Made by a program: the position numbers and the translations under genes
Source of the DNA: Pseudomonadota bacterium
Lineage (GTDB): Bacteria > Myxococcota_A > UBA9160 > JADFDR01
Length of the DNA: 64,000 nucleotides
Direction of reading: 5' to 3'
Assembly: GCA_003353845.1 (NCBI GenBank)
Contig: PIVT01000010.1
Coordinates: 4,042 to 68,041, forward strand
Shown here: one piece after another, positions 25,149 to 48,809 of the stretch
Layout of the letters: the number at the start of each line of letters is the position of its first letter
Position numbering within the stretch: position 1 is the stretch's first letter
The notes under the pieces: generated by a model
Told to the model about the DNA's origin: nothing
The model's database searches: none
Seen by the model: only the letters and a program-made list of their open reading frames with translations

Positions 25149-25181
25149 TCGCGCTTCAACGAATAGATTGAAAAGAGCTGA

Positions 25182-26525: not shown

Positions 26526-26542
26526 AGGTTTTGGGGGCACGA

Positions 26543-28416
26543 TGTTTCAAGCGAAGTCGAATCGGTTGGATGGAAAAGTGTGCATGGTTACAGGACCGAC
26601 AAGTGGCATCGGTCGGGAAGTCGCTCTTGAGTTGGCTTCTCTAGGCGCGAAGCTCATCCTCGTAGGGCGCAACCCCGGTAAATGCGAGCAGTTAAAGCGG
26701 GACATCCTGGCTAAAGGTGGAGGAGCACCTGAAATTATTATCTGTGATATGGGATCAATCAAACAGGTGGCACAAGCGGCCCGGCAGTTCTTGGATCTGG
26801 GTTTGCCATTGCATGTCTTGGTGAATAACGCGGGTCTTTTAAATCAGAGACGAATTGAAACGGACGAGGGGCTTGAGCAGGCCATGGCTGTGAATTACTT
26901 CTCAGCTTTCCAATTAACGCTTTCACTTCTTGACTGTATGAAGAAAAGTGCTCCTGCGCGAATCATAAATGTTGCCTCAAGCAGTTATCCCTTGGGAAAG
27001 ATCAACTTTGAAAATCTGAACTTCGAAAGATCCTATGGCCCCATCAAGAGCTATGCGGCTTCGAAGTTGGCGACGATTCACTTCACTCGTTTGCTGGCTA
27101 AAAAACTTGAAGGCACGCGGGTCACTGCAAATGTTTATAATCCAAAAATGATCTACACCAATCTGGCCGTTAGCAACAACGAGGGTCCATTGGTGAAATT
27201 TGCTGATTTCTTCTGGAAGCGAATCGCGGAGCCCCTGGAGTTTGGGAAAGTCACACCCGTGTTTCTTGCAACGTCGCCTCGGGTGGCCGATGTGTCGGGG
27301 AAATTCTTTGAGGACTGCAGGCAAGTGCCCTTGAAAAAGAAGGCACTTGATGATCGGGTGGCGAAAAGGCTTTGGCACAGAAGTGAAGTGATTGTTAACG
27401 CAAGATCAGGGTCCGACACACCTCTTGAAGAGGGTGTGATTAATATCGGCATTCTAGGGGCGGCAAGAATCGCTCCCTTTGCTTTGTTGAAACCCGCCAG
27501 GTCGATTCTAGGCGTGAAGGCCTATGCGGTAGCCGAGGAGTACCAACCCACTGAAGCCTTGCAGGAATTTGCCATAAAGCATGACATCCCATACACGTAT
27601 CCTCGATTCGATGAGCTCTTGCAAGATGCTCAGATTGATGCCGTATACATTCCTCAACCGATCAGCATGCATGCAAAGTGGGTGCTTCAAGCCATTCGTG
27701 CGGGTAAGCATGTTCTTTGTGAAAAACCTCTCGCCGCCAATGCTGAAGAAGCGCAAGAAATACATGATGCTGCCCGGGGAACAGGCTTGGTCGTGAGTGA
27801 GGCCATGCATTTCTGCTATCACCCCATGGTTGATCGAGTAAAAGAAGTGATCGCAAGTGGGGAAATCGGAAGGCTTGAGCATATCGATGCCAGCTTCAGC
27901 GCCTTTCTACCCTTTAATGATTTCCGCTTTAACTACGATTTGGGGGGAGGCTGCACCATCGATATGGGTTGCTATCCCATCGGTTTTATCCGCGCAGTGA
28001 CAGGGATGGAACCCGAAGTGGTTTCCGCAAAGGCGGGTCTGCACGGAGACAAGATTGATCGATGGATGGATGCAGATCTGCAATTTGCGGATCAGAGCAC
28101 AGCCAAGATCTACATGGGGATGCGTTCTCGTAAAGTTCTCAGTGTTTCGATGAAGATCATCGGAGAGCGTGGGACTATCGACATTGTGAATTTCATCAAG
28201 CCCGAACTCTATCACCGGCTTGTGATTAAAACCGATCGGATGAAGCGCCGTGAAACCATTTACGGAAAATCAACCTATGCCGCTCAATTGGAGGCCTTTG
28301 TGCGGGCCGTCAAGACGAAAACTCCCATTTTGACTTCGACTGAAGATGCTGTGAAGAATATGCGCGTGATCGATGCGGTCTATTTAAAGGCGGGCCTTCC
28401 GGTACGTGGTAGTTGA
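26543..28416 (+). CDS. Fusion protein: N-terminal classical SDR plus C-terminal Gfo/Idh/MocA oxidoreductase
   Basis: The SDR half has TGPTSGIGREV, NNAG and YAASK. After ~300 aa the Gfo/Idh/MocA half has IGILGAARIA and HVLCEKPLA (EKP motif). The ATG at 26543 is preferred; the ORF-track start at 26446 overlaps the sulfotransferase. Confidence 0.8.
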
Positions 28417-28573: not shown

Positions 28574-29446
28574 TTGTTGAACGAACCCTCCATCGCCGTC
28601 TTCATCGATTTCGAAAACCTCGCCTTGGGCGTCCGCGACGTGAAAGGTGAAAAATCCTTCAAAATTGAGCTGATCTTGAAGCGACTGCTTCAGAAGGGGC
28701 GCGTGGTCTACAAACGCGCGTATAGCGATTGGAGCAGTTACCGCGGCGAAGTACAGGATTTTCACCGTCAAGGGATCGAGTTGGTGGATATTCCACAGAG
28801 TAAGATGAGTGGCAAGAACTCCGCCGATATCCGCATGGTGGTTGACGCCATCGACCTGTGTCACACCAAGGACAATATCGACATCTTTGCGCTGATTTCA
28901 GGCGACAGCGATTTCTCGCCACTGGTTTCCAAGCTGAAGGAGAACAACAAGCGCGTCATCGGCTGCGGCATCAAGAACTCCACCTCGAACCTGCTGGTCT
29001 CCAACTGCGACGAGTTCATCTACTACGATGACCTGGTTCGGGCCACCGCGGAGGCACCGCGCAAGAAGGACGCCAGCGCGAAACCCGAGAAGACGACCAA
29101 GACGACCAAGGTAAGCAAGGCCAGTAAGGTTACCAAGGCCAGCAAGGCGAAGCGGGCTGAAACCGACAAAAAGGCCGAGGCGGAGGGCAAGCCAGGCGCC
29201 GAGGAGCGCAATAAGGCGCTCATGCAGGTGGTGGAAATTGTTCGCTCCCTCCAGGCCGATTACGATCCCTTGTGGGGCTCCATGGTGAAGCAGACCATCC
29301 GGCGCGTGTACCCCGGCTTCAACGAGGTGTATTACGGATACAGCGCCTTTGCCGAGGTGTTGGAGGACGTCGAAGATTTGGGCTACATCGATTTGGAATT
29401 CGATCAGCACCGCGGGAATTACAAGGTGAGCCTCGTTCGTGACTGA
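28574..29446 (+). CDS. NYN (LabA-like) nuclease-fold domain protein with a Lys-rich linker and a C-terminal OST-HTH/LOTUS domain
   Basis: The NYN part has IAVFIDFENL and LISGDSDFSPLVSKLKENNKRVIG. The linker reads KPEKTTKTTKVSKASKVTKASKAKRAE. The C-terminal part reads LWGSMVKQTIRRVYPGFNEVYYGYSAFAEVLEDV. It starts at TTG. Confidence 0.8.
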   Translation: MLNEPSIAVFIDFENLALGVRDVKGEKSFKIELILKRLLQKGRVVYKRAYSDWSSYRGEVQDFHRQGIELVDIPQSKMSGKNSADIRMVVDAIDLCHTKDNIDIFALISGDSDFSPLVSKLKENNKRVIGCGIKNSTSNLLVSNCDEFIYYDDLVRATAEAPRKKDASAKPEKTTKTTKVSKASKVTKASKAKRAETDKKAEAEGKPGAEERNKALMQVVEIVRSLQADYDPLWGSMVKQTIRRVYPGFNEVYYGYSAFAEVLEDVEDLGYIDLEFDQHRGNYKVSLVRD

Positions 29447-29452
29447 CTGGCG

Positions 29453-29482
29453 CGCACCGAGGGCACTGTGGCCCTCGGTGCG
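29453..29482 (+). terminator. Stem-loop immediately downstream of the NYN gene (possible terminator)
   Basis: A perfect 12-bp stem (cgcaccgagggc / gccctcggtgcg) has a 6-nt loop and begins 7 nt after the stop. It is followed by ttctcgc rather than a clean U-tract. Confidence 0.45.
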
Positions 29483-29488
29483 TTCTCG

Positions 29489-29537
29489 CTAAAGACAAAC
29501 TAAAAGACAAACTAAAAGACAAACTAAAAGACAAACT
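29489..29537. repeat. Tandem repeat, 12-bp unit ctaaaagacaaa x ~4
   Basis: Read directly from the sequence: one 11-nt copy, three perfect 12-nt copies and a partial copy. It lies in the convergent intergenic gap between two stop codons. Confidence 0.9.
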
Positions 29538-29583
29538 CTCTAGTCTGGCGCAACGTCGCTACCAGGCATTTTTGTCTCGTTAC

Positions 29584-30069
29584 TTATTTCTGAGGTGCAG
29601 CAACGTCGGGTCGAACCAGTGGAATGATCCCTGCCAACTCGTAGTTGATGACGGAGTCGAGTTTGTTTTCGATTTGGAAGTAGCGCACCACCGTTTTGGG
29701 CGGCAGAACTTTATTGAATTTTTTGATGTACTTCGTTTTTAGTTTCGTTCTGTCGGCTTCGATCTTGAGCGAGGTCTTCAGCATCTCTTGGGATCGGTCG
29801 CCATCCAGTGTTTCGAACTCTTTGGCGAGATCGAGAATCAGGTTGGCGCGCTTGTCATTGAGCTTTCGTAAAGCTACTTGAAATTCATCGTATACTGGCC
29901 AGAACGCCTTGCTCTGCTCGTCGGTCAAGCTCAGATTGTTGGCAACGATCATCTTGCGTTCAACTTCGATAATGGACTGTGTAAGGGCGAGATTGTCCCT
30001 GGTTTCCCCGGCGAGTGCCGGTGACGCCACGAATACCGCTAATAAAATCGCAATGCCTAGACGCTTCAT
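29584..30069 (-). CDS. Small periplasmic all-helical protein (unknown function)
   Basis: It has the signal peptide MKRLGIAILLAVFVASPALA after a GGAGAAAG RBS (start moved from 30189). The product is helical and charged, with no Cys or His motif. Confidence 0.45.
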   Translation of the reverse strand: MKRLGIAILLAVFVASPALAGETRDNLALTQSIIEVERKMIVANNLSLTDEQSKAFWPVYDEFQVALRKLNDKRANLILDLAKEFETLDGDRSQEMLKTSLKIEADRTKLKTKYIKKFNKVLPPKTVVRYFQIENKLDSVINYELAGIIPLVRPDVAAPQK

Positions 30070-30240
30070 TCTTTCTCCTTCTTGCAGGTGAGGTGTCTCG
30101 AAAAAGTTCAGCGATTCTAATAGAAAGGCTTGCGGGATGTCTACCGATAAATCTCTCTGTTGAATATTCCTTGGATTAACGGTGTACACTTCTCTGAAGA
30201 AGTTCGTATCTAGTAGCCACTCTGCCTGGGCATAGGTGTT

Positions 30241-30933
30241 CTAAAGCTCAAACAAGATGACTACAAGCCCTGAGGTCGCCACCGCAACGCCCGCCAGGGC
30301 ATGTCCCCATTTCTCGGTCCAGCGGAAGGAGAGGCGTTCCAGCCCGGCCATTCCCAGGGCGGTCAGAGAAAGCATGGTTACGAGGGTAACCACACTGAAC
30401 ACGACGGCGGTCAGCAGCGCCAGGTCCCATAGGCCACGGCTCGCAGGCAAGATAAAGAGCGGCACCAAGGGTTCACAGGGGCCCAGAACAAAGACGAGCA
30501 AGAGCATCCAGAACGTCAGCGTGTCACCGTTCGTGTCGTCGTGTCCGTGTGGCTCGGATGCGTGTTGGTGAATATGGACGTGGCCCATATGCCTGTGCGC
30601 CTGCAGGTCTCGCTTGTTGCGCAATGCAATCCGCAGGCCCCACATGGCGTAGGCAAAACCAAAGGCCACCAATAGCCAGGCCGCCCAATCGCCACGCCAG
30701 GCTTGGATTTGATCGACGTTGGCGACGCTGGCACCGATGGCGAGGCCGGCGACACCGAGCAGGAGGGATCCCGCCACATGTCCCAGGCCGCAGATCCCGG
30801 CCACGGCCAGCGTGCGCGTCCAACTCCACTTGCGTGCGGCCGCCAGCATGAGGAAGGGAAGATAGTGGTCGGGACCCATGATCGTATGGAGAAATGCCAC
30901 ACCCGCGGCAGCGCTCAGCAATAATCCATCCAT
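30241..30933 (-). CDS. Metal (Ni/Co-type) permease-like membrane protein with a His-rich cytoplasmic loop
   Basis: It is a 6-TM-like protein. It has FLHTIMGPDHYLP in the first half and LGPCEPLVP in the second, with a central loop HRHMGHVHIHQHASEPHGHDD. It resembles the NicO/RcnA-type organisation; the family call is tentative. Confidence 0.5.
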   Translation of the reverse strand: MDGLLLSAAAGVAFLHTIMGPDHYLPFLMLAAARKWSWTRTLAVAGICGLGHVAGSLLLGVAGLAIGASVANVDQIQAWRGDWAAWLLVAFGFAYAMWGLRIALRNKRDLQAHRHMGHVHIHQHASEPHGHDDTNGDTLTFWMLLLVFVLGPCEPLVPLFILPASRGLWDLALLTAVVFSVVTLVTMLSLTALGMAGLERLSFRWTEKWGHALAGVAVATSGLVVILFEL

Positions 30934-30952
30934 TTTTCTTGCCTCAAAACCG

Positions 30953-31750
30953 CTACGCCAAGACGTAGTTTCCGATGAGTTCGCGAACCGCGGACAAGCC
31001 CGGCGAATCCGCGGGAAGATCGGTGACCGGCCGCCCGATGAGATCGTGTTCAGTAATGATCTCGTCGAAGGGAATCATCCCTGCGATGTCCAAATCCAAT
31101 TTTGCTGCCGCATCCCGCAAGAGTTCCTCGTTTCCTCGCACGCGGTTGAACACCAACCCGAGCTTCTGACACTCCATGATATTGTCGACGCGGATCATGC
31201 GTTGAATCACATCGGCGGTCTCCAGGCCACGCGCCGTCGGGTCGGTAATGATCAGCAAGCTGTGGAGTTCACGTACGACCTGTCGATTGATTTGCTCAAG
31301 TCCAGCCTCACCATCGATGAGGATGGTGTCGAAGTTCTTGGAGAGTGCCTCGATGGAACCGCGGAGCAGAGAGTTTACCGGGCAATAGCAGCCCAAGGTT
31401 TCCGTCCTGCCCATGGCCAACACGGAATAGTCGTCCGCCTCGGTCAGGGCCTCCAGCAGCATGTATTCGATCATGTCGCCGATATGAGCTTTTTCCTCTT
31501 CCTTGCCGCGCTTGGCGGTCTTGATGATCTCCTCGCGAACCTCACCCATGGTTCGTCGAACACTCACACCGAGAGCACTGAGAAGTCCCATGGCTGGATC
31601 CGCATCGATGAGCAACAGCCTGCCGGCTCGCCCATCTTCGACGAGTGCGCGCGCCATCATGGCGATGGAGGCGGTCTTACCCGTTCCGCCTTTTCCACAC
31701 ACTGCAATCAGCTTTTTTTCTTTTTCCATCGTTTCCACAGACTCCGACAT
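30953..31750 (-). CDS. cooC: CooC/AcsF-type nickel-insertion ATPase (MinD/ParA superfamily)
   Basis: It has a deviant Walker A (CGKGGTGKTA), a metal-bridging CxC motif (LGCYCPVN), and a size (265 aa) typical of CooC. Confidence 0.75.
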   Translation of the reverse strand: MSESVETMEKEKKLIAVCGKGGTGKTASIAMMARALVEDGRAGRLLLIDADPAMGLLSALGVSVRRTMGEVREEIIKTAKRGKEEEKAHIGDMIEYMLLEALTEADDYSVLAMGRTETLGCYCPVNSLLRGSIEALSKNFDTILIDGEAGLEQINRQVVRELHSLLIITDPTARGLETADVIQRMIRVDNIMECQKLGLVFNRVRGNEELLRDAAAKLDLDIAGMIPFDEIITEHDLIGRPVTDLPADSPGLSAVRELIGNYVLA

Positions 31751-31781
31751 AAAAACCTTCTTGCGTCTTCCCGCACCTTGT

Positions 31782-32603
31782 TTAAGGCACGCTCTCCGCG
31801 TTCACTTGATCCACTGGGTTGTCGACGACACGCAACTCGTCGGACTCTTCATCGGACGAGGTGCTGTGGACAATGTCTCGAATATCGTCACAGACTTCTT
31901 GATCATGGCAGGACGCGCAATCCACTTCACAGTCGATATCGAATCCGCGCTCCTTCCAGGTTTCCTTGATCATTTCCCGACCGATGCTTCGCGTCTCACT
32001 CACAATCAAGTCCAGACCTTTTACGTCTTTCTTCGAACTCGTGATGAAGATGATCTCCATGGCGCTAACGCTAGGTACCTTGGATTTTACGAGGCTCATC
32101 AAAGCGCGACCCAGAGTCTCGAAATCAAAACCCTTGGCACCGGCCTCCTTGCTCACTCGGGCCCAGATATGCTCTGAGGTGCTTCGCAACATATAGCCGT
32201 CGATGTGATCCCCGACGTGTTGTGAACCCTTCAGGCGTTCGTGATCTGCCGGCGTCAGCTTTGGACCCGATACCAGCAAAACCTGGCCAAAGGGTAGGCT
32301 GCCGCCCTCGGATTCAGGAATGTCCGGCCCGATGAGTGTCATTTTGCCGTCGCTCACCAGGGCGGAGTCGGTCGTCCAGAGCAGGTGTGAGGCCGACCCC
32401 ATCTCAGGATTCCCCAGTTCTGCGAAGGTATCTCCGCGCAAGATGATTCCTTGATTCGCGTTCACGCCGATCTGAACTGGCAAGCCTTCGCGAAGCTGTT
32501 CCGGGTCATTGGGGAACTGGAGGCTCTTCGCAGGCCTGTCCTGCTCTTGTAAGAGCTCGACGTAGCGGCAAACGCCCTCGATAAATTCATCGAAGGTTGG
32601 CAT
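31782..32603 (-). CDS. Truncated acetyl-CoA synthase (AcsB/CdhC middle-domain)-like protein with a C-terminal Cys4 motif and acidic tail
   Basis: It is colinear with my recollection of the ACS/CdhC pattern: FAELGNP.., GKMTLIGPDIPE, ..HIDGYML.....HIWARVSKEAGAKGFDFETLGRALMSLVK..., EIIFITS. That is followed by CEVDCASCHDQEVC. It lacks the C-terminal Cys-Gly-Cys Ni-site region. A GAGGTG RBS precedes the ATG at 32603. Confidence 0.55.
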   Translation of the reverse strand: MPTFDEFIEGVCRYVELLQEQDRPAKSLQFPNDPEQLREGLPVQIGVNANQGIILRGDTFAELGNPEMGSASHLLWTTDSALVSDGKMTLIGPDIPESEGGSLPFGQVLLVSGPKLTPADHERLKGSQHVGDHIDGYMLRSTSEHIWARVSKEAGAKGFDFETLGRALMSLVKSKVPSVSAMEIIFITSSKKDVKGLDLIVSETRSIGREMIKETWKERGFDIDCEVDCASCHDQEVCDDIRDIVHSTSSDEESDELRVVDNPVDQVNAESVP

Positions 32604-32656
32604 CAAGGCACCTCATGACACATCTCCATTCCAAACGGTTCAAGCACACAACGCGT

Positions 32657-33982
32657 CTAAGCGAGACCCATACCCTTGAAGAAGTCTGTAACTTTCTCCT
32701 TTACTTCATCAACACTGGTATATCGCTTATCAAAGAGGTCGAGACCGATGTGCATGAAGGGCACGCCCAGCTCACGACAGGTCTCACGCATGATACCTAT
32801 GGTGGCAGAGCCGTCTTTGTGCCCCATATGCCCGGGCCAGATCACGCAATCGATCCGGTAATCCGTCACCATGCGCCGAATGTCCTCCGAGAAATTCTCG
32901 GCTGTACTTCGCGCCTGGCGAATCATGGGAGCATCGAGCAGGTTGCGCTTGGCGAGATCGTGGAAGATCGTTTCTTCTGAGGACGTGTCAATCAAGGTGT
33001 ATGGGAAATTCCCAAACATATCCATCACGATTACCGCGCCAAATTCCGTCTCAAGCCAGGGCATGAACTCGAACACCCAGCCGTAGGGCATGATGTCGAA
33101 CCAGAGCAAGCGAATCTTCTCTGTCCAGCCCTCGGCGGTGTTCGCGCCCTGACCGGCCTTCACTCGTGCTTCGCCGCATTTATAGAGTTGCTCGAACCAT
33201 GCGGTACATCGGGGATCGCCTGCTACGAAGCATTGGCTGATGGCGAAGGCCTGCGCTCCACCGATCTCCCATCCGTGCGGGCTGGGGACATTGCGCCGCA
33301 ACTCATTATAGTCCTGCCACTTGCTATAGGTCTTATTGGACTCGTCACACACCGTGACGAGTTTGTCCATGTCCAAGGTCTTGCCTGTGTGCTCCTCCAA
33401 AAATTTCGACATACGCCGCAACTCATCGGCGAAATACTCCACCGCGCGCTCATCGGATTTATAGGGAGGATCACAGCTATAGATCGGGACATTTTTCCAG
33501 GCTTCATTGTGCTGGAGCACCTGATGCAGCATGGGCGCGCCGTCACAGGGGTAGAGCAGGCCGAGAACGGCCGTAGGCATGGGCATGAGCCCGTTCTCGA
33601 TGTAGTACATGGGGAGTCGAATGGCGGTGCATAGATCCGTCCCCAATCCCATTTCTTCCGCACCCTCGATATCGTTGATCAAGTAGGGTGCTGTCGCTGC
33701 CAGGAATGGCGTTTCCATAACCATGAACCAGGGCAGGTCCATAGCCGTGAACAGCTCCGGCGCGTTGCAGAAATAGCCACCGATGAAGGGCTTATCGTTT
33801 TCGACGCAGTCGACAACGGTTTCCTTGGAATCCAGAAGGATTTCAAGCAGCTTTGCTTGAAGTGCGTTTTCCTCTCCAGGCATCACCTTCGCTGCGCTGA
33901 GCAGCAGCTTGAAATAGTCTCGTTCTTCTTTGTATCGCGATAAGGACTTGGCCTTGATCTCTTCAATATCCATCTTTGCCAT
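32657..33982 (-). CDS. HGD-D family protein (2-hydroxyacyl-CoA dehydratase beta / BcrB-BadE-like subunit)
   Basis: It has conserved Cys contexts (GGYFCNAPE, TDLCTAIR, YPCDGAP) and a length and layout typical of HGD-D components. The start MAKMDIEE lies 5 nt after the upstream stop, with a GGAGAAC RBS. Confidence 0.75.
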   Translation of the reverse strand: MAKMDIEEIKAKSLSRYKEERDYFKLLLSAAKVMPGEENALQAKLLEILLDSKETVVDCVENDKPFIGGYFCNAPELFTAMDLPWFMVMETPFLAATAPYLINDIEGAEEMGLGTDLCTAIRLPMYYIENGLMPMPTAVLGLLYPCDGAPMLHQVLQHNEAWKNVPIYSCDPPYKSDERAVEYFADELRRMSKFLEEHTGKTLDMDKLVTVCDESNKTYSKWQDYNELRRNVPSPHGWEIGGAQAFAISQCFVAGDPRCTAWFEQLYKCGEARVKAGQGANTAEGWTEKIRLLWFDIMPYGWVFEFMPWLETEFGAVIVMDMFGNFPYTLIDTSSEETIFHDLAKRNLLDAPMIRQARSTAENFSEDIRRMVTDYRIDCVIWPGHMGHKDGSATIGIMRETCRELGVPFMHIGLDLFDKRYTSVDEVKEKVTDFFKGMGLA

Positions 33983-33986
33983 CAGT

Positions 33987-35141
33987 TTAGTTCTCCGCCG
34001 CTTCGAGCTTTTCCAAGAATGCTTGTACACGTGTTCTGAGTTGCCCTTTGCCGCTCAGAATGTATTCCCGATCAAGTGCCATGAAGGGGATGCCATCGTC
34101 TTTGAGGTCGAGATTCGTCATGTAATGTTCGACGAGCCACTGATCACAGAAGAGCAAGCGCTCGCCAATGATGCCGTCCACATTGAATTCCTTGGCCATC
34201 TCCCGCGTGTAGTCGATGCGACGTTCTTGATCGCCATACATTCGGGGGCAGGAGGGTCGATCGTAGATGTAGTAGCTCGCCAGGGCCTGTACCGGGTCGA
34301 GATTGTCTTCGTCCACGGGCCGCCACATCAACCGGGTACCGAAACAAGTGGAATCGGTAACGACGAGTCCCCCTTGTTCCTCGATGATCTTGATGTACTC
34401 GGGATCGTCGAGTTCGCCGCCCACGATCATGATTCGGGCTCGGTACTTCCCCGTCCCTTCGTGGCCGCTAAGGTCTTCGAGTAGTTCTTCCAGTAAAGCC
34501 TTGTACTGAGGTCTTGGCATGGCCGTGCCAGCCACCATGACGGCGAGGGTTTCCGTGCCGGTAATGGGCGGATTATCAACCTTCCTCAGCTCATACAGTT
34601 GCTTTTGTAAGCTGCGAATCTCATTGTGGAGCTTGATGGCATCACGCAGATTCTTATCCGTAATCTCTACTTTGAAGTGCTCTTCAATTTGACCCTTTAA
34701 AACATTGATTTCATCGCGGTACCAATCGATCTGAGGTTGCTCGATCTTGCGAGGAAGGCTCATGACCTCGACGAAGGGTGTCTTCAGGTGACGAATCCAG
34801 TTGTCGTAGATGCGCCGGACGTGATCACAGCTGTTGATGCAAATCAGACCGTCGAGAAAATCATATTCGCCCTTGAGAGCTTGATTCATCGTATGCCGAG
34901 GGAAGCTGCAGTTGATGGCGCTGAAGCAGGAGTCCGAGAGTTCCGTCCCCGTGCTCCCCGTCCCGCGCATTCGGAAGGGCATGATCCCAGCTGCCGTGAA
35001 AATCTCTTCGGGTACCGTCGAGCAGAAAAAACCGGCGACCTTGCCACCCTGTTCCTTCCACGCTTCGATCTCGGGATTGAGAATACAGCTACTGGCCTGA
35101 ACAAACTTGTCAAATGCATCCGACTTGATCGACGTTTCCAA
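33987..35141 (-). CDS. HGD-D family protein (2-hydroxyacyl-CoA dehydratase alpha / BcrC-BadD-like subunit)
   Basis: It has GFFCSTVPEEIFTAAG, INCSFPRH and INSCDHVRR, plus a C-terminal FCDQW... pattern typical of HgdA/BcrC. It starts at TTG with an AAGGAG RBS. Confidence 0.8.
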   Translation of the reverse strand: METSIKSDAFDKFVQASSCILNPEIEAWKEQGGKVAGFFCSTVPEEIFTAAGIMPFRMRGTGSTGTELSDSCFSAINCSFPRHTMNQALKGEYDFLDGLICINSCDHVRRIYDNWIRHLKTPFVEVMSLPRKIEQPQIDWYRDEINVLKGQIEEHFKVEITDKNLRDAIKLHNEIRSLQKQLYELRKVDNPPITGTETLAVMVAGTAMPRPQYKALLEELLEDLSGHEGTGKYRARIMIVGGELDDPEYIKIIEEQGGLVVTDSTCFGTRLMWRPVDEDNLDPVQALASYYIYDRPSCPRMYGDQERRIDYTREMAKEFNVDGIIGERLLFCDQWLVEHYMTNLDLKDDGIPFMALDREYILSGKGQLRTRVQAFLEKLEAAEN

Positions 35142-35193
35142 TATACAGCTCCTTCATGCGGGAAGAGTGACGCCCGCGCATCGTTATTCCGTA

Positions 35194-35982
35194 TCAATCC
35201 GCCTTGTCTAAGCGCTCGGCGGCGAATAGCGCGGCGCCCAGAGCCCCCGCGATTTGTGGATCCTCTGGCAGTTTTTGCAGCGTGATATCAAGCTTGTCTG
35301 CCAGGGCTTTCGCCAAGCCGTAATTCTTGGAACAGCCACCCGTCAGTGCGACATCCTCAATGACACCGACCCGCCGCGACATGGACATCAATCGAGAGGC
35401 TACGGAGTTGTTGATGCCGGCAATGATGTTCTTGACGTCAATGCCCTCGTTCACCAGGGTGACCACCTCCGACTCTGCGAAGACGCTGCACTGATTACTG
35501 ATCGTGCAAGGATTGTCGCCCTGATTTTCCAAGGCCGAGATCCCTTCGAGTCCGCAGTCGAGCGCTCGTGCCATGGCTTCGAAGAATCGCCCCGTACCCG
35601 CCGCACATCGGTCATTCATGGAGAATTCGAGCACCGCCCCTTTGGGTGAAACGGAAATCACTTTGCAATCCTGGCCACCGATGTCGATGACAGTTCGCAG
35701 AGAAGGGGTCATCCAGTGCGCACCCTTTGCGTGACAGGTGATTTCGGACATGTTTTCCGATGCATAGGGGATCTGAAGTCGCCCATAGCCAGTTACGACA
35801 ACGTTTTCGAGATGGTCGACGGAAGGCAATCCCGCTTGTTCAAGCGCTTGCCCCATGGCCTCGTCCGCTGTGATCACCGGGTTGGTAGTGGATTTGATAA
35901 CCTGCTGGCCGACAATGTCGCCATCCTTGAGGATGACTGCCTTACCGGTGGCAGAGCCTATGTCGATTCCTCCAACAATCAT
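35194..35982 (-). CDS. HgdC/BcrAD-BadFG-type ATPase (activase, [4Fe-4S]-bridged archerase)
   Basis: It has the ASKHA motifs GIDIGSATGKAV and DIGGQDCKVI, the cluster-ligand contexts NDRCAAGTGRF and SNQCSVFAESE, and a size of 262 aa. Confidence 0.9.
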   Translation of the reverse strand: MIVGGIDIGSATGKAVILKDGDIVGQQVIKSTTNPVITADEAMGQALEQAGLPSVDHLENVVVTGYGRLQIPYASENMSEITCHAKGAHWMTPSLRTVIDIGGQDCKVISVSPKGAVLEFSMNDRCAAGTGRFFEAMARALDCGLEGISALENQGDNPCTISNQCSVFAESEVVTLVNEGIDVKNIIAGINNSVASRLMSMSRRVGVIEDVALTGGCSKNYGLAKALADKLDITLQKLPEDPQIAGALGAALFAAERLDKAD

Positions 35983-36231
35983 TCAATCGCTTCCTTTTTG
36001 TAGGGGTGAGTCCGAGTCGGGCTTGAGAGGGTGGGGTGCGCTGAATTCGAAGCGGGGAGTTTCTTTTCGCCCTACGTTATGAACGTCGTAAGGCGTCGGA
36101 ATAAGGGTCACTTGGAAGGTTTTGAATTCATTCATATAAAGCAGCCACCGTAGTTGGATCAAAATAAGAATAAACGTTCGTTAGTTTTTTTGCTAGTGTC
36201 TAAAGGCGAAAAAACCTAGAAATATCAGTAG

Positions 36232-36255
36232 TTTAGAAAGTGTTTACTTTCTAAA
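36232..36255. promoter_or_regulatory. Perfect 10-bp inverted repeat TTTAGAAAGT-gttt-ACTTTCTAAA in the divergent intergenic region (candidate regulator binding site)
   Basis: Read directly from the sequence. An extra TCTAAAG half-site at 36199-36205 repeats 51 nt upstream of the one at 36250-36256. The region is A/T-rich and lies between the activase operon and the His-rich/CooT genes. Confidence 0.4.
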
Positions 36256-36348
36256 GTCAATAGACAACCATCGATTGTGACGGTTGAAAACAGGAAATGA
36301 CGCCTTCTATTCACCTAGAAGGCCTAGACGTGTCCGCAGAGAGGAAAG

Positions 36349-36571
36349 CATGGATTTTCTAGAAAAAGCTTCCACCCGCCTGAAACACTGGCTGGAGCAT
36401 AATCACCATCACGAGGCCGATTACGAGAGCTTCGCCCGCCAACTTGAGGAGGCGAACCAGGACGCCAGCGCGCAATGCATTCGAGATATGATTGCCTTGA
36501 CGCGAAAGAGCAGCGACTGTCTCACAAAGGCCTTGGAGTCCCTTGAGAGTTCTTCAAGCGGGAACAAGTGA
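36349..36571 (+). CDS. Small helical protein with a His cluster (possible metal-binding protein)
   Basis: The 74-aa product reads MDFLEKASTRLKHWLEHNHHHEADYE... and has two Cys further on. A GAGAGGAAAG RBS precedes the ATG at 36349; the ORF track starts at 36284. Confidence 0.45.
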
Positions 36572-36611
36572 AGAACCGTGACGGTTCGCAATCTAGACTA
36601 GGAGCACGGCC

Positions 36612-36806
36612 ATGTGCGATACGAATGCATTCCTTGTGAAACAAGGCGTTCAAGAAAAAATTTTGGAGAGCGTCGACCGTGTCGAATTTCTGGATGGTGA
36701 AATTCGGTTGACGAATATCTTCGGCGAGCAGAGTACGCTGCGCGCAAAGCCGACGCTCTTTGATAACACCCAGGGAGTTCTTCTTTTCGAACCCATCGAC
36801 GGGTAA
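36612..36806 (+). CDS. cooT: CooT-family small nickel-binding protein
   Basis: The 64-aa product starts MCDTNAFLV (invariant Cys2) and continues ...ILESVDRVEFLDGEIRLTNIFGEQ..., matching the CooT-family beta-barrel pattern. A GGAG RBS is present. Confidence 0.6.
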   Translation: MCDTNAFLVKQGVQEKILESVDRVEFLDGEIRLTNIFGEQSTLRAKPTLFDNTQGVLLFEPIDG

Positions 36807-36858
36807 TGGCGCACTTGGCTCTCGACTGATTATTCTGAAGAGGTTTGGAGAGAGTCTC

Positions 36859-38283
36859 CTAAGACTCGGACTCACCAAGATCGGTGGGTTCTTTGTCCCC
36901 GTCTTCGAGGTAGGGGGCGAGGTCCTCATAGCGGCGGTACAGGGTTCGTCGGTCGATGCCGAGAATTCGGGCCGCCTGCATTTTGTTGCCATCGGTACGC
37001 TTGAGAACTTCAGCGATGTATCGGTCTTCGAGTTCTTGAAGCTTCGGTAGGTCTTCGATCGAGTGTTCGAAGAGGTTACCTTGGTTTAGAAGGTTTGTGC
37101 CTAGCTCCTCCTCGTCGAGGAAAGGAAATGCATCTGCATCGATCTCTAAATAATCGGAAAGCGTAATGGCGCGCTCGATGGCATTTTCCAACTCTCGGCC
37201 GTTTCCTTTCCAGGGCGCGGATGCAAGCTTCTTGATCGCCCCCGGTGTAAGACGTTGGCGAGGATCGACTTCATGTCTGCGAAGAAACGCCTCGGCCAAG
37301 ACGCTGATGTCTTCGGGACGTTCTCTGAGGGGGGGGATGTGAATGGGGATGACGCTCAAGCGGTAGTATAGATCTTCTCTGAAGTCTTCTGTCTCAATAC
37401 GGCTTCGCAGGTTTTGATTGGTTGCGGCAATCAGGCGGACATTGGTCCGAAAGGAACGAGTGGCACCGACGGGTCTGACCTCACCGTCTTGCAGGACGCG
37501 CAATAGCTTCGCTTGCATCAAGGGGCTGATATCACCGATTTCATCAAGGAATAGCGTGCCGTCATTCGCTTCCTCGAAGAGGCCTTTCTTTGCAGTGTGG
37601 GCTCCGGTAAAGGCGCCGCGGACGTGCCCGAAAAGTTCACTCTCAAGGAGATTTTCAGGTAGTGCAGTGCAATTGACAGGGATGAAGGCCTCAGACGCAC
37701 GGTCGCTTGAGAAGTGTATCGCTCGTGCCACCACCTCTTTCCCAGTGCCACTTTCGCCTGTGATCAAAACGGTGCTGCGATTAAGCGCAACTTTACGCAC
37801 GACGGCAAAGATCTCGCGCATTGCGGGGCTCTCTCCAAGCAAATCACCATAGGAACTTGTTTGAGCTGCGACAGTTCGCCGTAACTTCGTGTTTTCGTCC
37901 GCAAGGAGCCGATATTCGAAGGCGCGCTCAAGCGTGATGAGCACTTCCTTTCGTTTGAAAGGCTTTGTGATGTAGTGAAATGCCCCAAGTCGCATGGCTT
38001 CCACAGCAGTATCAATTCGCCCAAAGGCGGTCATGAGTATGACTGGTGTGGATGGCCGAAGCTCACGGATTTCACCCAGCAGCTCAATCCCTGATTTGCC
38101 CGGCATTCGAATGTCACTGAGAATGGCCGTGACATCACGGCCTTGAAGAAGCTCTATGGCTTCATCGGCGGAAGAAACGGGAATTCCCTCGATGTTCTCT
38201 TCTTCGAGCATTGAGCAAAGCGTACTTCGCATTGCCGAGTCGTCGTCAACAATCAGGACTGAATGAAGTTTGTTCGTGGTCAT
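36859..38283 (-). CDS. Sigma54-dependent response regulator (NtrC family: receiver, AAA+, Fis-type HTH)
   Basis: It has VLIVDDDSAMR...DIRMPGKSG (receiver), GESGTGKEVVARAIH (Walker A), GAFTGA, ESELFGH and a C-terminal AARILGIDRRTLYRR. Confidence 0.9.
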   Translation of the reverse strand: MTTNKLHSVLIVDDDSAMRSTLCSMLEEENIEGIPVSSADEAIELLQGRDVTAILSDIRMPGKSGIELLGEIRELRPSTPVILMTAFGRIDTAVEAMRLGAFHYITKPFKRKEVLITLERAFEYRLLADENTKLRRTVAAQTSSYGDLLGESPAMREIFAVVRKVALNRSTVLITGESGTGKEVVARAIHFSSDRASEAFIPVNCTALPENLLESELFGHVRGAFTGAHTAKKGLFEEANDGTLFLDEIGDISPLMQAKLLRVLQDGEVRPVGATRSFRTNVRLIAATNQNLRSRIETEDFREDLYYRLSVIPIHIPPLRERPEDISVLAEAFLRRHEVDPRQRLTPGAIKKLASAPWKGNGRELENAIERAITLSDYLEIDADAFPFLDEEELGTNLLNQGNLFEHSIEDLPKLQELEDRYIAEVLKRTDGNKMQAARILGIDRRTLYRRYEDLAPYLEDGDKEPTDLGESES

Positions 38284-38512
38284 TCGTTACAAGATCTCTT
38301 TGTCGTTCGGTTCCGCTGCCAGGCGGATGCATTAGCTGGAAGTCGAAGCTTAACAATTGTTGAAGAAACTATCGACTCGATCAGCTGCCTTGCGGGCAGG
38401 GAAGGATTAGTGAGGAATTCTGCGGTCATGCGCGAGAAGTGCTTCCTTTGAGCCCCTCGTTTTTTGCATAGACTGTAGTGAGCCGAGGGGAGGACTGGTG
38501 TGGGTTTCTTGC

Positions 38513-39514
38513 TCAGTACTTCTTGTTTCCCAGTTTCTGTTGATGTCGGAACCAGCGTGCAGCTTCGGCGATGGATTCTTCAACCGGTCGGGGATTCCAA
38601 TGAAGTTCGTTTCGAGCTTTGCTGTTGTCGAAATCCTGAATGATTCGCGTCAGGCGAAGGCTTTTCACAGACACTTGGGTTTCCCGACCCAATAACCAGT
38701 GAGCCCGTTCAGAAAGCCAGCAACTCAGGTACATCACCCACATGGGCACGCTGGGCACAGGCCAGCGTAGGCCTGTGGCCTTGGCGGCAATGTCCCAGAT
38801 TTGCTTGAGGCTAAGCGTTCGGTCGGTAATCAAGTAGCGCTCGCCGAGGCGGCCATGCTTCTCCGCCAGAACCATGGCGTTGGCGGCATCTTGAATCCCA
38901 ACGGCACTGAAGCGCCCACCCCAAGCGGGCAGCAAGCCGCGAATGACCTCGGTGATCATCCAGCCGTGAGGTGTGGGTTGGAGGTCTTCGGCACCGTAGG
39001 TCATGGCGACATTGCAGGCGACGCCGGGTAGGCCGCGCTTGCAATAGTCGAGAAAAAGCTCCTCGGCTTCGACACGCACGCATACGTATTCCGAAGCTTG
39101 GTCCGCCCAGTTGAAGGCGTCGGCTTCCGTGGCTATCCCCGTTGGATTCAAGCCCAAGGTCATGAAGGTACTGGTATAGATGAAGCGCTCGACGCCGACA
39201 TCCAGAGCCGCGTCCAAGACATTGCGCAAGCCTTCGACGTTGGTGACGCGCAGGGGGGCAGGGTCTTTTAGCCAGGCTCGCGTGTCCACCACGCAATAAT
39301 AGATGGTGGAACAGCCCTGCATGGCTTCGCGTAGCGAGTCTGCGTCGCACACATCACCAATCGCGCGCTCAACTTTTAGATGATCGATGGCCGAAGTGTC
39401 GCTCGTCGCACGAGTGAAGATGCGGATCTCGCGGCCATCCTTGGCCAGTGTCCTGACGACGTGACTGCCGAGAAACCCGCTGGCGCCCATTACCAGGGCT
39501 TTTCCTTCTGACAT
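38513..39514 (-). CDS. Extended-SDR NAD(P)-dependent epimerase/dehydratase or 3beta-hydroxysteroid dehydrogenase-like reductase
   Basis: It has VMGASGFLGSHVV (the GxxGxxG of extended SDRs). The start is moved to MSEGKALVMG (39514); the ORF track gives 39577. Confidence 0.75.
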   Translation of the reverse strand: MSEGKALVMGASGFLGSHVVRTLAKDGREIRIFTRATSDTSAIDHLKVERAIGDVCDADSLREAMQGCSTIYYCVVDTRAWLKDPAPLRVTNVEGLRNVLDAALDVGVERFIYTSTFMTLGLNPTGIATEADAFNWADQASEYVCVRVEAEELFLDYCKRGLPGVACNVAMTYGAEDLQPTPHGWMITEVIRGLLPAWGGRFSAVGIQDAANAMVLAEKHGRLGERYLITDRTLSLKQIWDIAAKATGLRWPVPSVPMWVMYLSCWLSERAHWLLGRETQVSVKSLRLTRIIQDFDNSKARNELHWNPRPVEESIAEAARWFRHQQKLGNKKY

Positions 39515-39584
39515 GCTTATCCTTTGCTGCGGGTGTCTGGCACGCTGGGGTGGAAGGTGGAAGGTACCTTTCTTCAATTCAGGA

Positions 39585-41393
39585 TCAAGCGAGAGGCGGA
39601 GTACCGGTCACGTGGCGTGCCGCTCGGTAGCCAAAGGTCATGGAGGGGCCAATGGTGCCGCCAGCGCCGGGGTAGCTGGCCCCCATCACGGAGGCGGAAC
39701 AATTACCCGTGGCATACAGCCCGGGGATGGGGCTGTCATCTTCGCGAAGCACACGGGCATGGGCGTCGGTGCGCAATCCGCCCTTGGTGCCGAGGTCTCC
39801 CGGCACCACTTTGATGGCATAGAAGGGCGGTTTCTCAATGGGGGCGATACAGGGATTGGGTTTGACTAGAACATCGCCATAGTAACGGTCGATGGTTGTT
39901 TCGCCGCGTCGAAAATCAGGATCTTGTCCCTTGCGGGCAGAGGCATTGTATCGTTCGAGTTCACTCGCAAGGCCTTGGGGATCGATGCCGCACTGGCGAG
40001 CGAGGTCTTCGATACTGTCGGCCTTCTTCAAAAAACCACTTTTTATATATTTCTTCGTGGGCATGCCCAGCATGATCGGGCCGAGGGGATAACGCATGTG
40101 GAAGCGGTGATCGGCAATTTGGAAGGCGGGAATGGCCTTAGCGCCCTGGCGGTGATGCTCCAATTGGGCGTGACCCACATCTAGATAGGGAGCCGCTTCG
40201 TTGGTAAAACGATGGCCCGCTGCATCGACGATGATGGTTCCAGGCAGTGTACGTTCAGGCAAAAGGAACCAGGGAAAATCCTTTCCTTGTTCACGACTGA
40301 GTTCTGTCCACCAGGAGCCCTTGGCGTACCAGGGGAGGAGATGTCCGGGAACCATGGTCGTAGGCATCCACCAAGCTTCGTCCATATTGCCCAGGGAGGC
40401 GCCGACCTCCACGCCCATGCGGATGGCGTCCCCCGTGTTTTCGGGACTACCCGACGACCAGGTCGCGCAATCACTAGAAAAATGGTGGGCTTGTCGCAAC
40501 GTGGGATTTTTGTCAAAGCCACCCGCCGCAATGATGACGCCTTGACGCGCGCGAATTCGGATCGGTTGGCCGCAGCGAGTGGCTTCGACTCCGACAACGC
40601 GCTCGCCTTCGCTAATGAGTTTCGTCACCGGGCTTTCGAGCCAGAGCGGGATGGAACGTTCCATCAGGGCCAGTCGCAGCGCTCCGCACAGCGCATTTCC
40701 AAGCGTGAGGCGCGTGTCTCTCCGAGCAAAAGAGCGTGTGGGGTTTAGAAGGTAGGAGGCGAAGCTAGTCAGAATCGCGAAGCGGGCGCGAAGAGAGGCG
40801 CTTACCATGTCGCGAGCCTCGGCGCTGCGGATCATCCAGCGCCCGAGGATCAAGAGATGTGGTCCGGGAACGCGAAGCTCTTTTCCCCGCTCTCCTAGTT
40901 TTCGCAGGTTGAAGGGCAGAGATTCAAGAGTACGACCTCCCTCGGGTTTGCTGCCCTCCACATGGGGGTAGTAATCGGGGTAATCGCTAGAGATTTCAAA
41001 GCGGAGCGGGCTGTTTTTTTCCAGGTAAGCGACAACTTCAGGGCTGGATTCGACATAGGCTTGGAGCAGTTCTTCTGCGACGCAGCCAGAAGTGATACTT
41101 CGCAGATAGCTAAGCGCTTCCCCTGGAGAGTCACTTAACTGAGCCTTGGCCATGAGGTGGTTATTGGGGATCCAGATGGAGCCGCCCGAAATAGCGGTGG
41201 AGCCGCCAAACACTGAGCTTTTTTCGAGGACCAGGGTCTTGCTGCCGCAGTCTTTTGCCACGAGCGCCGCGGTCATGGCGCCGCCACCAGATCCGATCAC
41301 GACGACATCAACCTCTTCATCCCAATCTGCCACGGTGCCTTTGGTCCTTTCTATAGCGGGGGTTGACTCGTACCGGGAGGGAGAGATTAGCAC
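39585..41393 (-). CDS. FAD-binding flavoprotein, 3-ketosteroid delta1-dehydrogenase/fumarate-reductase-like (FAD_binding_2)
   Basis: It has the dinucleotide fold VDVVVIGSGGGAMTAAL...LEKSSVFGGSTAISGG and the C-terminal GLYATGNCSASVMGASYPGAGGTIG. Confidence 0.8.
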   Translation of the reverse strand: MLISPSRYESTPAIERTKGTVADWDEEVDVVVIGSGGGAMTAALVAKDCGSKTLVLEKSSVFGGSTAISGGSIWIPNNHLMAKAQLSDSPGEALSYLRSITSGCVAEELLQAYVESSPEVVAYLEKNSPLRFEISSDYPDYYPHVEGSKPEGGRTLESLPFNLRKLGERGKELRVPGPHLLILGRWMIRSAEARDMVSASLRARFAILTSFASYLLNPTRSFARRDTRLTLGNALCGALRLALMERSIPLWLESPVTKLISEGERVVGVEATRCGQPIRIRARQGVIIAAGGFDKNPTLRQAHHFSSDCATWSSGSPENTGDAIRMGVEVGASLGNMDEAWWMPTTMVPGHLLPWYAKGSWWTELSREQGKDFPWFLLPERTLPGTIIVDAAGHRFTNEAAPYLDVGHAQLEHHRQGAKAIPAFQIADHRFHMRYPLGPIMLGMPTKKYIKSGFLKKADSIEDLARQCGIDPQGLASELERYNASARKGQDPDFRRGETTIDRYYGDVLVKPNPCIAPIEKPPFYAIKVVPGDLGTKGGLRTDAHARVLREDDSPIPGLYATGNCSASVMGASYPGAGGTIGPSMTFGYRAARHVTGTPPLA

Positions 41394-41423
41394 CTTGATC
41401 GGTACCCGGCCTCCATCGAGGGT

Positions 41424-42209: not shown

Positions 42210-42218
42210 CCTGAGAGT

Positions 42219-43883: not shown

Positions 43884-44066
43884 CTACGTATCTCCGATTG
43901 GATTGAAGTAGTGGGGTTAAAACTGTAGCAGGTCTGATGAGAACGTAATGAGGCAAAGACTGGAATGACAAATTGCCGCGAGGGGGTGGGTTCGGTTATG
44001 TATAGGTTCACGGATCGAGCCCTGCGGGCTGGCCGGATCTGGAATGATGAAAGGATCTACCCTTAA

Positions 44067-44933: not shown

Positions 44934-44945
44934 TTGGTTTCCGTG

Positions 44946-45620: not shown

Positions 45621-45652
45621 GTTGTTTCCTAGCGGGAAAACGTGATTTTTGA

Positions 45653-45672
45653 ATTATTGCACAGACAATAAT
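45653..45672. promoter_or_regulatory. Inverted repeat ATTATTG-N6-CAATAAT (candidate TetR operator)
   Basis: Read directly from the sequence. It lies 33 nt upstream of the tetR start, in the divergent region shared with LLM paralog 2. Confidence 0.4.
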
Positions 45673-46694: not shown

Positions 46695-46710
46695 TCGAGA
46701 TCAGGACCCA

Positions 46711-48777: not shown

Positions 48778-48809
48778 ATTGGTTTGAGAATAAATGGAAG
48801 GAGTAGAAC

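Follow-up and report, generated by a model that had tools for sequence, protein, structure and literature searches.

The described systems closest to the locus analysed here, at 30241-38283 of a 64-kb window (the whole stretch of DNA analysed, 64,000 nucleotides of contig PIVT01000010.1), fall on two sides. On one side stand the reductases and dehydratases with the HGD-D fold. Class I benzoyl-CoA reductases (BCR; BzdNOPQ and MbdONPQ, PDB 8S02, 9G87, 9GAI) have two HGD-D-fold subunits as a heterodimer and a BcrAD_BadFG partner encoded by two activase genes (P and Q). The double-cubane protein DCCP (6ENO, 7YYL) is a homodimer of one subunit type with a six-Cys motif, and its ATPase, DCCP-R, is a homodimer of HgdC type. 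The 2-hydroxyacyl-CoA dehydratases (HadBC/HadI, HgdAB/HgdC) have a single activase, and their beta subunits hold a simple [4Fe-4S] cluster rather than a six-Cys double cubane. On the other side are acetyl-CoA synthase (ACS) with its ATPase AcsF, and the CooC/CooT/CooJ set that goes with carbon monoxide dehydrogenase (CODH). In the literature searched we found no description linking the HGD-D, BCR or double-cubane side to the CooC, CooT, AcsF, ACS or nickel side, and likewise none for DUF8180, so that the opinion given in a preliminary description of this DNA, namely that no described system joins an archerase/HGD-D module to nickel-maturation factors and an ACS-derived domain, stands.

The locus contains a module of five genes, encoding an activase, two HGD-D subunits (A and B), a short ACS-like protein (mini-ACS) and a CooC-family ATPase, which, judged by its sequences, works like a class I BCR or DCCP yet is a member of neither. 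We put at about one in two the probability that the locus specifies an ATP-dependent, low-potential reductase of the BCR/double-cubane type, equipped with a metal-centre maturation pair recruited from the ACS system. The evidence consists throughout of sequence comparison and gene context.

The five-gene module is real and conserved beyond chance. A scan with one genome per species yielded 80 loci (identified below by numbers with the prefix L), all of them in metagenome-assembled genomes (MAGs); 53 have enough flanking sequence for the core genes to be counted, and 52, of at least 12 kb, serve for the counts of neighbours. In 41 of the 53 loci, from at least eight lineages, the genes of the activase, subunits A and B, mini-ACS and ATPase run in one direction inside a stretch of 5 kb, and the gene order, whose presence in other genomes had been left to be checked, is thus conserved across phyla. 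The 80 loci belong mostly to Dehalococcoidia/Chloroflexota, the other hosts being delta-proteobacterial/Thermodesulfobacteriota, Binatia, Acidimicrobiales (Actinomycetota), Myxococcales, Acidobacteria, Spirochaetales, Bacteriovoracaceae and Bacillota. Wherever both are present, the mini-ACS and ATPase genes are adjacent and come last in the gene order. Exceptions to the core arrangement are frameshifted genes in L001, the divergent paralogues L082-85 (three-Cys mini-ACS, Cys-type subunit B and no ATPase) and L063, which has the mini-ACS and ATPase genes by themselves.

Paralogous modules are found on two contigs of a single MAG (L002 with L070, L006 with L083, L031 with L082, L009 with L085), and two or three tandem A/B pairs may accompany one activase, one mini-ACS and one ATPase (L020, L021, L026, L034, L040, L054, L060 and L068 are among these loci). 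In L002, from a Deltaproteobacteria MAG, three genes of the HupE/UreJ family (Ni/Co transporter type, 129-2616) lie ~4 kb upstream of the module, and a large molybdopterin oxidoreductase and a Fer4 protein are encoded directly downstream of the ATPase.

In the window itself, the nine open reading frames (ORFs) of the preliminary description are all present, with positions and strands as it had them, and each motif that it quoted (NDRCAAGTG, SNQCSVFAES, GKGGTGKT, GCYCP, HRHMGHVHIHQHASEPHGHDD, HWLEHNHHHE and the start MC...) is found in its translation. The features are as follows.

35194-35982, minus strand: HgdC/DCCP-R-type activase, 262 aa (PF01869, TIGR00241)
33987-35141, minus strand: HGD-D subunit A, BzdN-like, 384 aa (PF06050)
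32657-33982, minus strand: HGD-D subunit B, BzdO/HadB-like, 441 aa from ATG (PF06050)
31782-32606, minus strand: mini-ACS, 274 aa, TTG start (PF03598)
30953-31750, minus strand: CooC-family (AcsF-type) P-loop ATPase, 265 aa, with a CxC motif
30241-30933, minus strand: putative Ni/Co permease (UreH-like/NicO-like), 230 aa, with a His-rich loop
36347-36571, plus strand: small His-motif protein, DUF8180-like, 74 aa, divergent
36612-36806, plus strand: CooT-type nickel chaperone, 64 aa (PF10133)
36859-38283, minus strand: sigma54-dependent response regulator, 474 aa, convergent with cooT
36232-36255, no strand: inverted repeat TTTAGAAAGT-N4-ACTTTCTAAA, candidate operator

The six minus-strand ORFs run co-directionally from 35982 down to 30241 with gaps of 52, 4, 50, 31 and 19 nt, and since these gaps are short the run fits a single operon; the two HGD-D genes are separated by 4 nt, not by the 5 nt first reported. 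Pfam and NCBIfam support the earlier family calls for the activase, the HGD-D pair, the CdhC-like protein, CooT and the sigma54 regulator, and a homologue of 441 aa, 97% identical, covers subunit B from end to end. A 363-aa ORF on the plus strand (30878-31969) was rejected as a gene: it is a shadow ORF that overlaps, from the other strand, the coding sequence of the ATPase and the last part of that of the mini-ACS, and related loci have similar shadows. Among the scanned ORFs of the 64-kb window none encodes CODH, full-length ACS, a corrinoid iron-sulfur protein (CoFeSP), a CoA-transferase or an acyl-CoA dehydrogenase, which extends to these ORFs the earlier remark that the usual partners are missing near the locus.

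The predicted electron-injection subunits and the cluster site of subunit B

The activase matches PF01869 (5e-59, 200 bits against a cut-off of 31.5) and TIGR00241, the model for acyl-CoA dehydratase activases (247.5 bits against 125.4). Residues C126 and C165, conserved in 100% of 53 orthologues, are the predicted cluster-bridging pair that would hold a [4Fe-4S] between the subunits. Whereas class I BCRs have two activase genes, the module has one, as do the dehydratases, and since the gene is single its product is presumably a homodimer, like the ATPase of DCCP.

Subunit A (PF06050, 1.6e-94) has BzdN as its best solved relative (8S02_B, 1.8e-50). Six Cys residues (C40, C78, C105, C266, C298 and C332), a motif shared with DCCP, show 95-100% conservation in 63 sequences. 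Each of them aligns to a Cys of BzdN, in which an [8Fe-9S] double cubane is bound by six Cys (PMC11971306). This pattern makes subunit A a predicted BzdN-like, double-cubane electron-relay subunit of the reductase type, not a dehydratase beta subunit. The earlier assignment of the pair to the HGD-D family holds for both subunits by PF06050, but for a pair that is, by its sequences, of the reductase and not of the dehydratase type. The NCBIfam scores nevertheless stay below the cut-offs: 216 bits for subunit A and 41 for subunit B against 350 for double_cubane (NF040772), 167 against 454 for BzdN, 32 against 449 for BzdO and 180 against 380 for BzdQ, with the HadB and HadC scores lying far under theirs.

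Unlike DCCP, the module has an A/B pair in which subunit B (PF06050, 4e-45) lacks the six-Cys pattern. The AF2 model of subunit B, with a predicted local distance difference test (pLDDT) score of 86.6, superposes on MbdO and BzdO. The top Foldseek matches are MbdO (9G87_A), BzdO (8S02) and HadB (3O3M_A), then DCCP, the best TM-score being that to HadB (0.78/0.86). When the sequence is compared with those of solved structures, DCCP is the best match (2.2e-07, versus 3.2e-05 for BzdO), and both proteins have a C-D-G motif, which in subunit B includes the second Cys.

The catalytic [4Fe-4S]-OH2 cluster of BzdO is held by Cys95, Cys128 and Cys380 (PMC11971306). In subunit B two Cys, Cys118 and Cys146, are invariant, whereas the position of Cys380 is taken by His388, which sits within a strictly conserved W-P-G-H-M-G-H-K-D-G loop. 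Of the 63 B-type ORFs of the loci, 54 have P-G-H-M-G-H-K-D-G where G-[HN]-x-G-C-[KR] is canonical. Among 150 representatives of clusters at 50% identity, the HxGH form is carried by 29, all with E < 1e-35 and within the best ~75 matches; most of the best-scoring full-length matches have it, and the Cys type predominates from ~1e-52 down, with one Cys-type homologue appearing already at 1.7e-62. Because the wider HGD-D family usually has G-H-x-G-C-K, the event specific to this clade is, on these alignments, one Cys-to-His change. His385 was rejected as a clade-specific ligand, as canonical relatives commonly have the same G-H-x-G-C-K. Cys402 was rejected as a third Cys ligand, since in the model it lies 14 residues into the next helix, and since one HxGH-type member, as well as most of the Cys-type relatives, lacks it.

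In addition to the exchanged ligand, subunit B has Gly or Ala at the position of the catalytic His131 of BzdO, and Glu65 of the latter falls outside the alignment. Four Arg residues are invariant: R16 and R21 in the N-terminal helix, and R229 and R230 directly before the segment that aligns to the CoA-contacting helix 220-234 of BzdO. No other protein of the module is as well conserved as subunit B, which has 70-80% identity among Desulfobacterota, Binatia, Krumholzibacteriia and Dehalococcoidia.

The mini-ACS and its ATPase

The mini-ACS matches PF03598 (CdhC) with 4e-18 and 66 bits against a cut-off of 24, and aligns to residues 312-485 of ACS from M. thermoacetica, in the middle domain, and to residues 19-193 of CdhC, which bears out the earlier call of an ACS-like protein. 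Unlike ACS, it has no N-terminal CODH-docking domain, and the profile search gave no match to PF19436, the C-terminal A-cluster domain; its NCBIfam score is 77 against a cut-off of 372. The tail carries four Cys, C226-x3/5-C230-x2-C233-x5-C239, which are invariant in the alignment made and form a motif present in 54 of 59 family members, and the chain ends ~35 residues past it. Only one Cys pair, C230-x2-C233, aligns with CdhC, at the C-x2-C of its 'GCTLCQ'; the equivalents of this pair we take to be the first two cubane ligands of the A-cluster, where the ACS equivalent of C233 would form the bridge from the cubane to the proximal Ni. On this alignment the 274-aa protein is derived from ACS and comprises the middle domain and a four-Cys remnant of the cubane site; it probably binds a cubane and would be unable to form a Ni-Ni site alone. 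Clustered at 90% identity, the family falls into at least 419 groups. Among the core proteins the mini-ACS varies most (~50% identity), and its AlphaFold model (pLDDT 41.8) is unusable. The middle domain of ACS is reported to interact with CoA (PMC12289521), which could be relevant to the mini-ACS.

The ATPase matches only the generic CbiA and MinD models in Pfam, and its best solved relative is CooC1, over the full length and with the CxC aligned. A deviant Walker A motif GKGGxGK[ST] and C[YFW]C are found in 50 of 50 orthologues. A profile of the orthologues matches CooC1 (3KJE) over its full length with 3.7e-24 and 88.5 bits, versus 3.4e-16 and 62 bits for MinD, in fragments only. To place the ATPase within the CooC family, 80 genuine acs operons were fetched. 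These have two CooC paralogues, one upstream of CODH with the CooC1-like motif G-G-S-x-C-Y-C-R-E-N-S, and one between RACo and acsD with the motif G-P-G-C-Y-C-Y-P-N-D (an arrangement confirmed in L088). The ATPase of the window scores mostly 130-167 bits with phmmer against the internal paralogue (~34% identity), versus 47-75 bits against the upstream one, the CooC1 type (~25% identity). In a quick neighbour-joining tree, rooted on fragmentary MinD, the ATPases of the module are monophyletic (96/100 bootstraps), the CooC1-like group stands apart (100/100), and the module and acs-internal ATPases form a clade in the best tree, with 51/100 bootstraps. Profile scores, phmmer and tree thus agree that the ATPase groups with CooC/AcsF and not with MinD/ParA.

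The acs-internal paralogue is presumably the AcsF subgroup, which is reported to insert Ni into the A-cluster (Gregg et al. 2016). Since the ATPase is closest to this paralogue, the mini-ACS and the ATPase together look like a recruited, truncated ACS/AcsF pair, with a putative role of the ATPase in ATP-dependent binding and delivery of nickel. In contrast to ACS and AcsF, the pair has no CODH, CoFeSP or methyltransferase near it and has an HGD-D reductase as partner; conversely, we know of no bzd or mbd cluster with the mini-ACS and CooC-type ATPase that accompany the module.

Proposed working and the nickel question

By homology with BzdNOPQ and DCCP/DCCP-R, the homodimeric activase would accept an electron from a ferredoxin-type donor and, upon hydrolysis of ATP, inject it into the [8Fe-9S] cluster of subunit A. 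Subunit B would then receive it at a buried cluster with two Cys and His388, instead of three Cys, as predicted ligands, and the substrate would be reduced there. The mini-ACS and the AcsF-type ATPase would act like ACS and AcsF, building or loading a nickel-containing centre for the holoenzyme, while CooT, the small His protein and the permease would supply nickel in some lineages.

Dependence on nickel is inferred from gene context only. Apart from the ATPase, that context comprises three accessory genes. CooT matches PF10133 (6e-13, 49.3 bits against a cut-off of 27), and its 64 residues start with Met-Cys, as do the orthologues; in CooT of R. rubrum, Cys2 is a Ni ligand (PMC6006190). Homologues of CooT adjoin the module in L001, L006, L007, L009, L031, L047, L057, L070 and L073. 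The small His protein contains H-W-x-x-H-N-x-x-H; the 74-aa protein of the window has no match in the Pfam copy searched, and its homologue in L001 carries PF26551 (DUF8180). Its homologues, found with phmmer, adjoin the module in L001, L006, L007, L009, L031, L047, L064 and L070. Altogether, CooT and the small His protein recur beside the module in at least ten loci of several lineages. The set resembles CooC/CooT/CooJ in its CooC-family ATPase with CxC, in a CooT with Cys2 and in a small, His-rich protein whose role would be like that of CooJ, and differs from it by the absence of CODH and by a His protein that is DUF8180-like and not CooJ. The permease, with its His-rich loop and an H-x3-G-x-D-H motif, has more than 3800 homologues, some of which carry PF13386 (UreH-like/DsbD_2). 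JGI gives homologues the names nickel/cobalt exporter or NicO. The protein of the window itself has neither a Pfam nor a PDB match, and stays a putative permease. The gene keeps its place after the ATPase in the related contig L086 and is absent from the other loci, and on this distribution it is a lineage-specific accessory conserved in close relatives only.

Since the ATPase belongs to a family that serves Ni-Fe-S centres and CooT, the His protein and the Ni/Co-type permease recur, involvement of nickel is the best reading, and we lean somewhat towards it. To our knowledge, every characterised member of the CooC/AcsF family serves such a centre. The candidate nickel sites in the sequences are the cubane of the mini-ACS and the His-bearing site of subunit B.

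Several observations weigh against this interpretation or against parts of it. The alignment of the mini-ACS contains neither the Ni-binding Cys-Gly-Cys of ACS nor a conserved His, so the protein appears to offer at most one nickel ligand beyond the cubane. In subunit B, His388 may simply give a His-ligated [4Fe-4S], which would explain the site equally well, and His385 next to it is common in canonical Cys-type relatives. The clade uniting the ATPases of the module with the AcsF type has moderate support, 51/100 bootstraps under a fragmentary MinD root. The window has no CoA-pathway genes nearby. The mini-ACS/ATPase pair stands alone in L063, a Desulfobacterales MAG, where it occupies 10004-11661 with no HGD-D or activase gene within 10 kb; upstream are MetV/MetF and a large HdrA/NfnB-like flavoprotein, and directly downstream is the gene of a class-V aminotransferase (cysteine-desulfurase-like). 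Strict coupling of the pair to the His variant had to be rejected as well, Cys-type B subunits also being found beside the mini-ACS: six of the eight in the loci adjoin a divergent mini-ACS, and two of these adjoin an ATPase. Two tandem activase genes are present in BCR-like sets (L074, L075 and L084, also L030, L044 and L051), and in the first three of these the Cys-type B subunit lies beside a divergent mini-ACS. The partnership of the mini-ACS thus extends past the His-variant clade.

The pair is not tied to the His variant and occurs alone in L063, which leaves some probability to a role in iron-sulfur maturation or electron carriage, free of nickel. The module would then be a BCR/DCCP-type reductase with a His-ligated [4Fe-4S] in subunit B, the mini-ACS a [4Fe-4S] carrier or scaffold, the ATPase an Fe-S insertion or conformational chaperone, and CooT, the His protein and the permease lineage add-ons for another metal, or unrelated. 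The four Cys of the mini-ACS, with no further metal ligands, agree with such a role, as does H385, which belongs to the widespread G-H-x-G-C-K, so that a single ligand has changed; the cysteine-desulfurase-like neighbour in L063 and the absence of CooT and permease from most loci point the same way, and a review makes the case that CooC may assist folding instead of carrying nickel (PMC6006190). We nevertheless consider it unlikely that nickel plays no part, in view of the nickel centres served by the characterised relatives of the ATPase, the CxC nickel motif in all 50 orthologues and the presence of CooT next to the module in several distant lineages where no CODH is close by. In E. coli, moreover, BzdNO obtains the [8Fe-9S] cluster with no special factor (PMC11971306), so the double cubane by itself is unlikely to call for a dedicated ATPase.

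At the opposite extreme, the nickel centre might itself be the catalyst and the reductase its activator. The mini-ACS and the ATPase would in that case carry an A-cluster-like [4Fe-4S]-Cys-Ni site, possibly completed by Cys-x-Cys of the ATPase, for C-C or C-S chemistry on an acyl-CoA, and the chain of activase, double cubane and subunit B would drive Ni to a low-valent state, as RACo does for a corrinoid and the methyl-coenzyme M reductase activation complex for F430. Ni(II)/Ni(I) couples do need very low potentials, the pair is derived from ACS/AcsF and can occur alone, C233 aligns, in our alignment, to what we take to be the bridging Cys, and the reported interaction of the ACS middle domain with CoA would fit. 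Set against these points, the substrate-subunit fold, the buried site and the conservation of subunit B, the highest in the module, suit a catalyst better than a relay, the mini-ACS is the core protein that is conserved least, and a CooC-type ATPase as a permanent catalytic subunit would be without known precedent; we regard this arrangement as improbable.

The reading that we prefer, a reductase with a recruited maturation pair, may be carried one step further, although only tentatively and with odds that we judge to be against it. The module would represent a new class of nickel enzyme, in which an archerase/double-cubane chain feeds a Ni-Fe-S centre built by the recruited ACS/AcsF pair. Uncultured Chloroflexota, Desulfobacterota, Binatia and their relatives would use this centre, an A-cluster-like site outside the Wood-Ljungdahl pathway, to reduce CoA thioesters at very low potential. 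The mini-ACS, with its cubane, may share the centre with another protein that supplies ligands, or the centre may lie at the Cys2-His site of subunit B.

Neighbouring genes, likely substrate and significance

The commonest neighbours outside the core, clustered from crude ORF calls by which families may be undercounted, are short-chain dehydrogenases/reductases (SDRs, 15 loci), acyl-CoA dehydrogenases (13) and ADP-forming CoA-ligase-like proteins (9), followed by pairs of a thiolase-like protein with DUF35 (9), MaoC hydratases (7) and flavoenzymes like old yellow enzyme (OYE) and FadH (6). At least one clearly CoA-linked neighbour is present in 16 of the 52 larger loci, and in a Chloroflexota sublineage the arrangement is a fixed operon, in which acyl-CoA dehydrogenase, MaoC, thiolase and DUF35 genes precede the module and a CoA-ligase-like gene follows it. 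The earlier statement that acyl-CoA genes are lacking therefore holds for this window but not for the 16 loci that carry CoA genes beside the module. Such neighbours are also a point of likeness to class I BCR, and because they flank the module in these loci, the substrate is most likely the CoA thioester of some cyclic or aromatic acid.

It is quite unlikely, in our judgement, that the module is instead a small-molecule reductase like DCCP, acting on an unsaturated or C1/N compound not bound to CoA, with the CoA genes reflecting pathway clustering. The closer sequence match of subunit B to DCCP than to BzdO and the shared C-D-G motif would suit such an enzyme, and 36 of the 52 larger loci, like the window, have no CoA-type neighbour. 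The in-line CoA operon conserved around the module in the Chloroflexota sublineage speaks for a CoA thioester, however, as do the invariant Arg residues, two of them just ahead of the segment aligned to the CoA-contacting helix, and the characterised heterodimeric members of the family, all of which use CoA thioesters (PMC11971306).

Public annotation gives the products the names "2-hydroxyacyl-CoA dehydratase", "benzoyl-CoA reductase subunit" and "CODH/ACS beta subunit". The first two would suit an ordinary 2-hydroxyacyl-CoA dehydratase or benzoyl-CoA reductase locus with unrelated nickel genes beside it by chance. Conservation already contradicts this, the five genes being linked in most loci and in many phyla, and so do the equivalog scores far under their cut-offs, the replaced third catalytic Cys and the one activase gene in place of two; we give it hardly any weight. 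The dehydratases share with the module the single activase, the HGD-D fold and, in HadB, the best TM-score, but differ by the third Cys, by the double-cubane pattern of subunit A and by their CoA-transferase, which has no counterpart in the window. The preliminary description had held that a conserved CoA-ester pathway would make the locus an ordinary one; CoA genes do recur, yet conservation of the mini-ACS/ATPase pair and of the Cys-to-His change sets the locus apart from an ordinary one.

The gene set first proposed is to be kept for its five core genes; the permease is conserved in close relatives only, as described above, and the sigma54 regulator (Sigma54_activat, Response_reg and HTH_8 domains) is not conserved beside the module, apart from one distant match in L068. 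No match to TGGCAC-N5-TTGCW (-24/-12) with up to two mismatches was found in 35983-36346, window-wide counts being those of chance. Control of the module by sigma54 was rejected on these two grounds, and the regulator probably lies outside the system. The divergent intergenic region between the activase and His-protein genes contains, at 36232-36255, a perfect 10-bp inverted repeat, a candidate operator by its sequence, which was found in none of 86 related loci. No riboswitch or other RNA reached the gathering score of Rfam in 29000-39000, and promoter and terminator scans were uninformative, at or below shuffle expectation.

Directly downstream of the permease, a 201-aa ORF (29584-30189, minus strand) has an internal signal-peptide-like start (MKRLGIAILLAVFVASPALA), with no Pfam match and no homologue beside the module in the other loci. 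Further away, 23802-28416 contains an ecdysteroid-kinase-like gene, a sulfotransferase and a fusion of an SDR with Gfo/Idh/MocA. On the other side, 38513-54359 begins with a 3-beta-HSD/epimerase-like gene (38513-39577) and two KstD-like FAD_binding_2 proteins (39585-41393 and 42219-43883), and includes a TetR regulator, three luciferase-like (LLM) oxidoreductases, two by Pfam and the third (45822-46694) by similarity only, two OYE/FadH-like flavoenzymes (46711-48777 and 50227-52194) and a cytochrome P450 (53070-54359). By their gene content the two regions look like an island for a steroid, terpenoid or aromatic compound.

The window also contains a RACo-like gene at 60664-62193 on the plus strand, with Fer2, Raco_middle and RACo_C_ter domains, and no CoFeSP or ACS. 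RACo is an ATP-dependent reductive activator of corrinoid proteins, and in genuine acs operons its gene directly precedes that of the AcsF-type ATPase (L088). Two gene sets for ResB/CcsA-type cytochrome c biogenesis, with multihaem cytochromes (NapC/NirT-like and MtrC/c7-like), are spread over 5740-8048, 15957-19502 and 20768-23397, and a B12-binding radical SAM gene lies at 8431-9930.

Only about ten kinds of nickel enzyme are known. If its dependence on nickel holds, the module would add one more kind and would be the first link of ATP-driven electron injection of the HgdC/BCR type to nickel chemistry, and it would show that an ACS fragment and its insertase have been reused outside carbon fixation. 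Even without nickel, it is a widespread and strongly conserved relative of BCR and DCCP, with a His-ligated catalytic cluster as predicted from its sequences and two obligatory accessory proteins. The five genes span ~5 kb and hence form a cloneable, directly testable target. The clade is abundant in uncultured bacteria of sediments and the subsurface (Dehalococcoidia, Binatia, Desulfobacterota), whose degradation of recalcitrant cyclic compounds is poorly understood.

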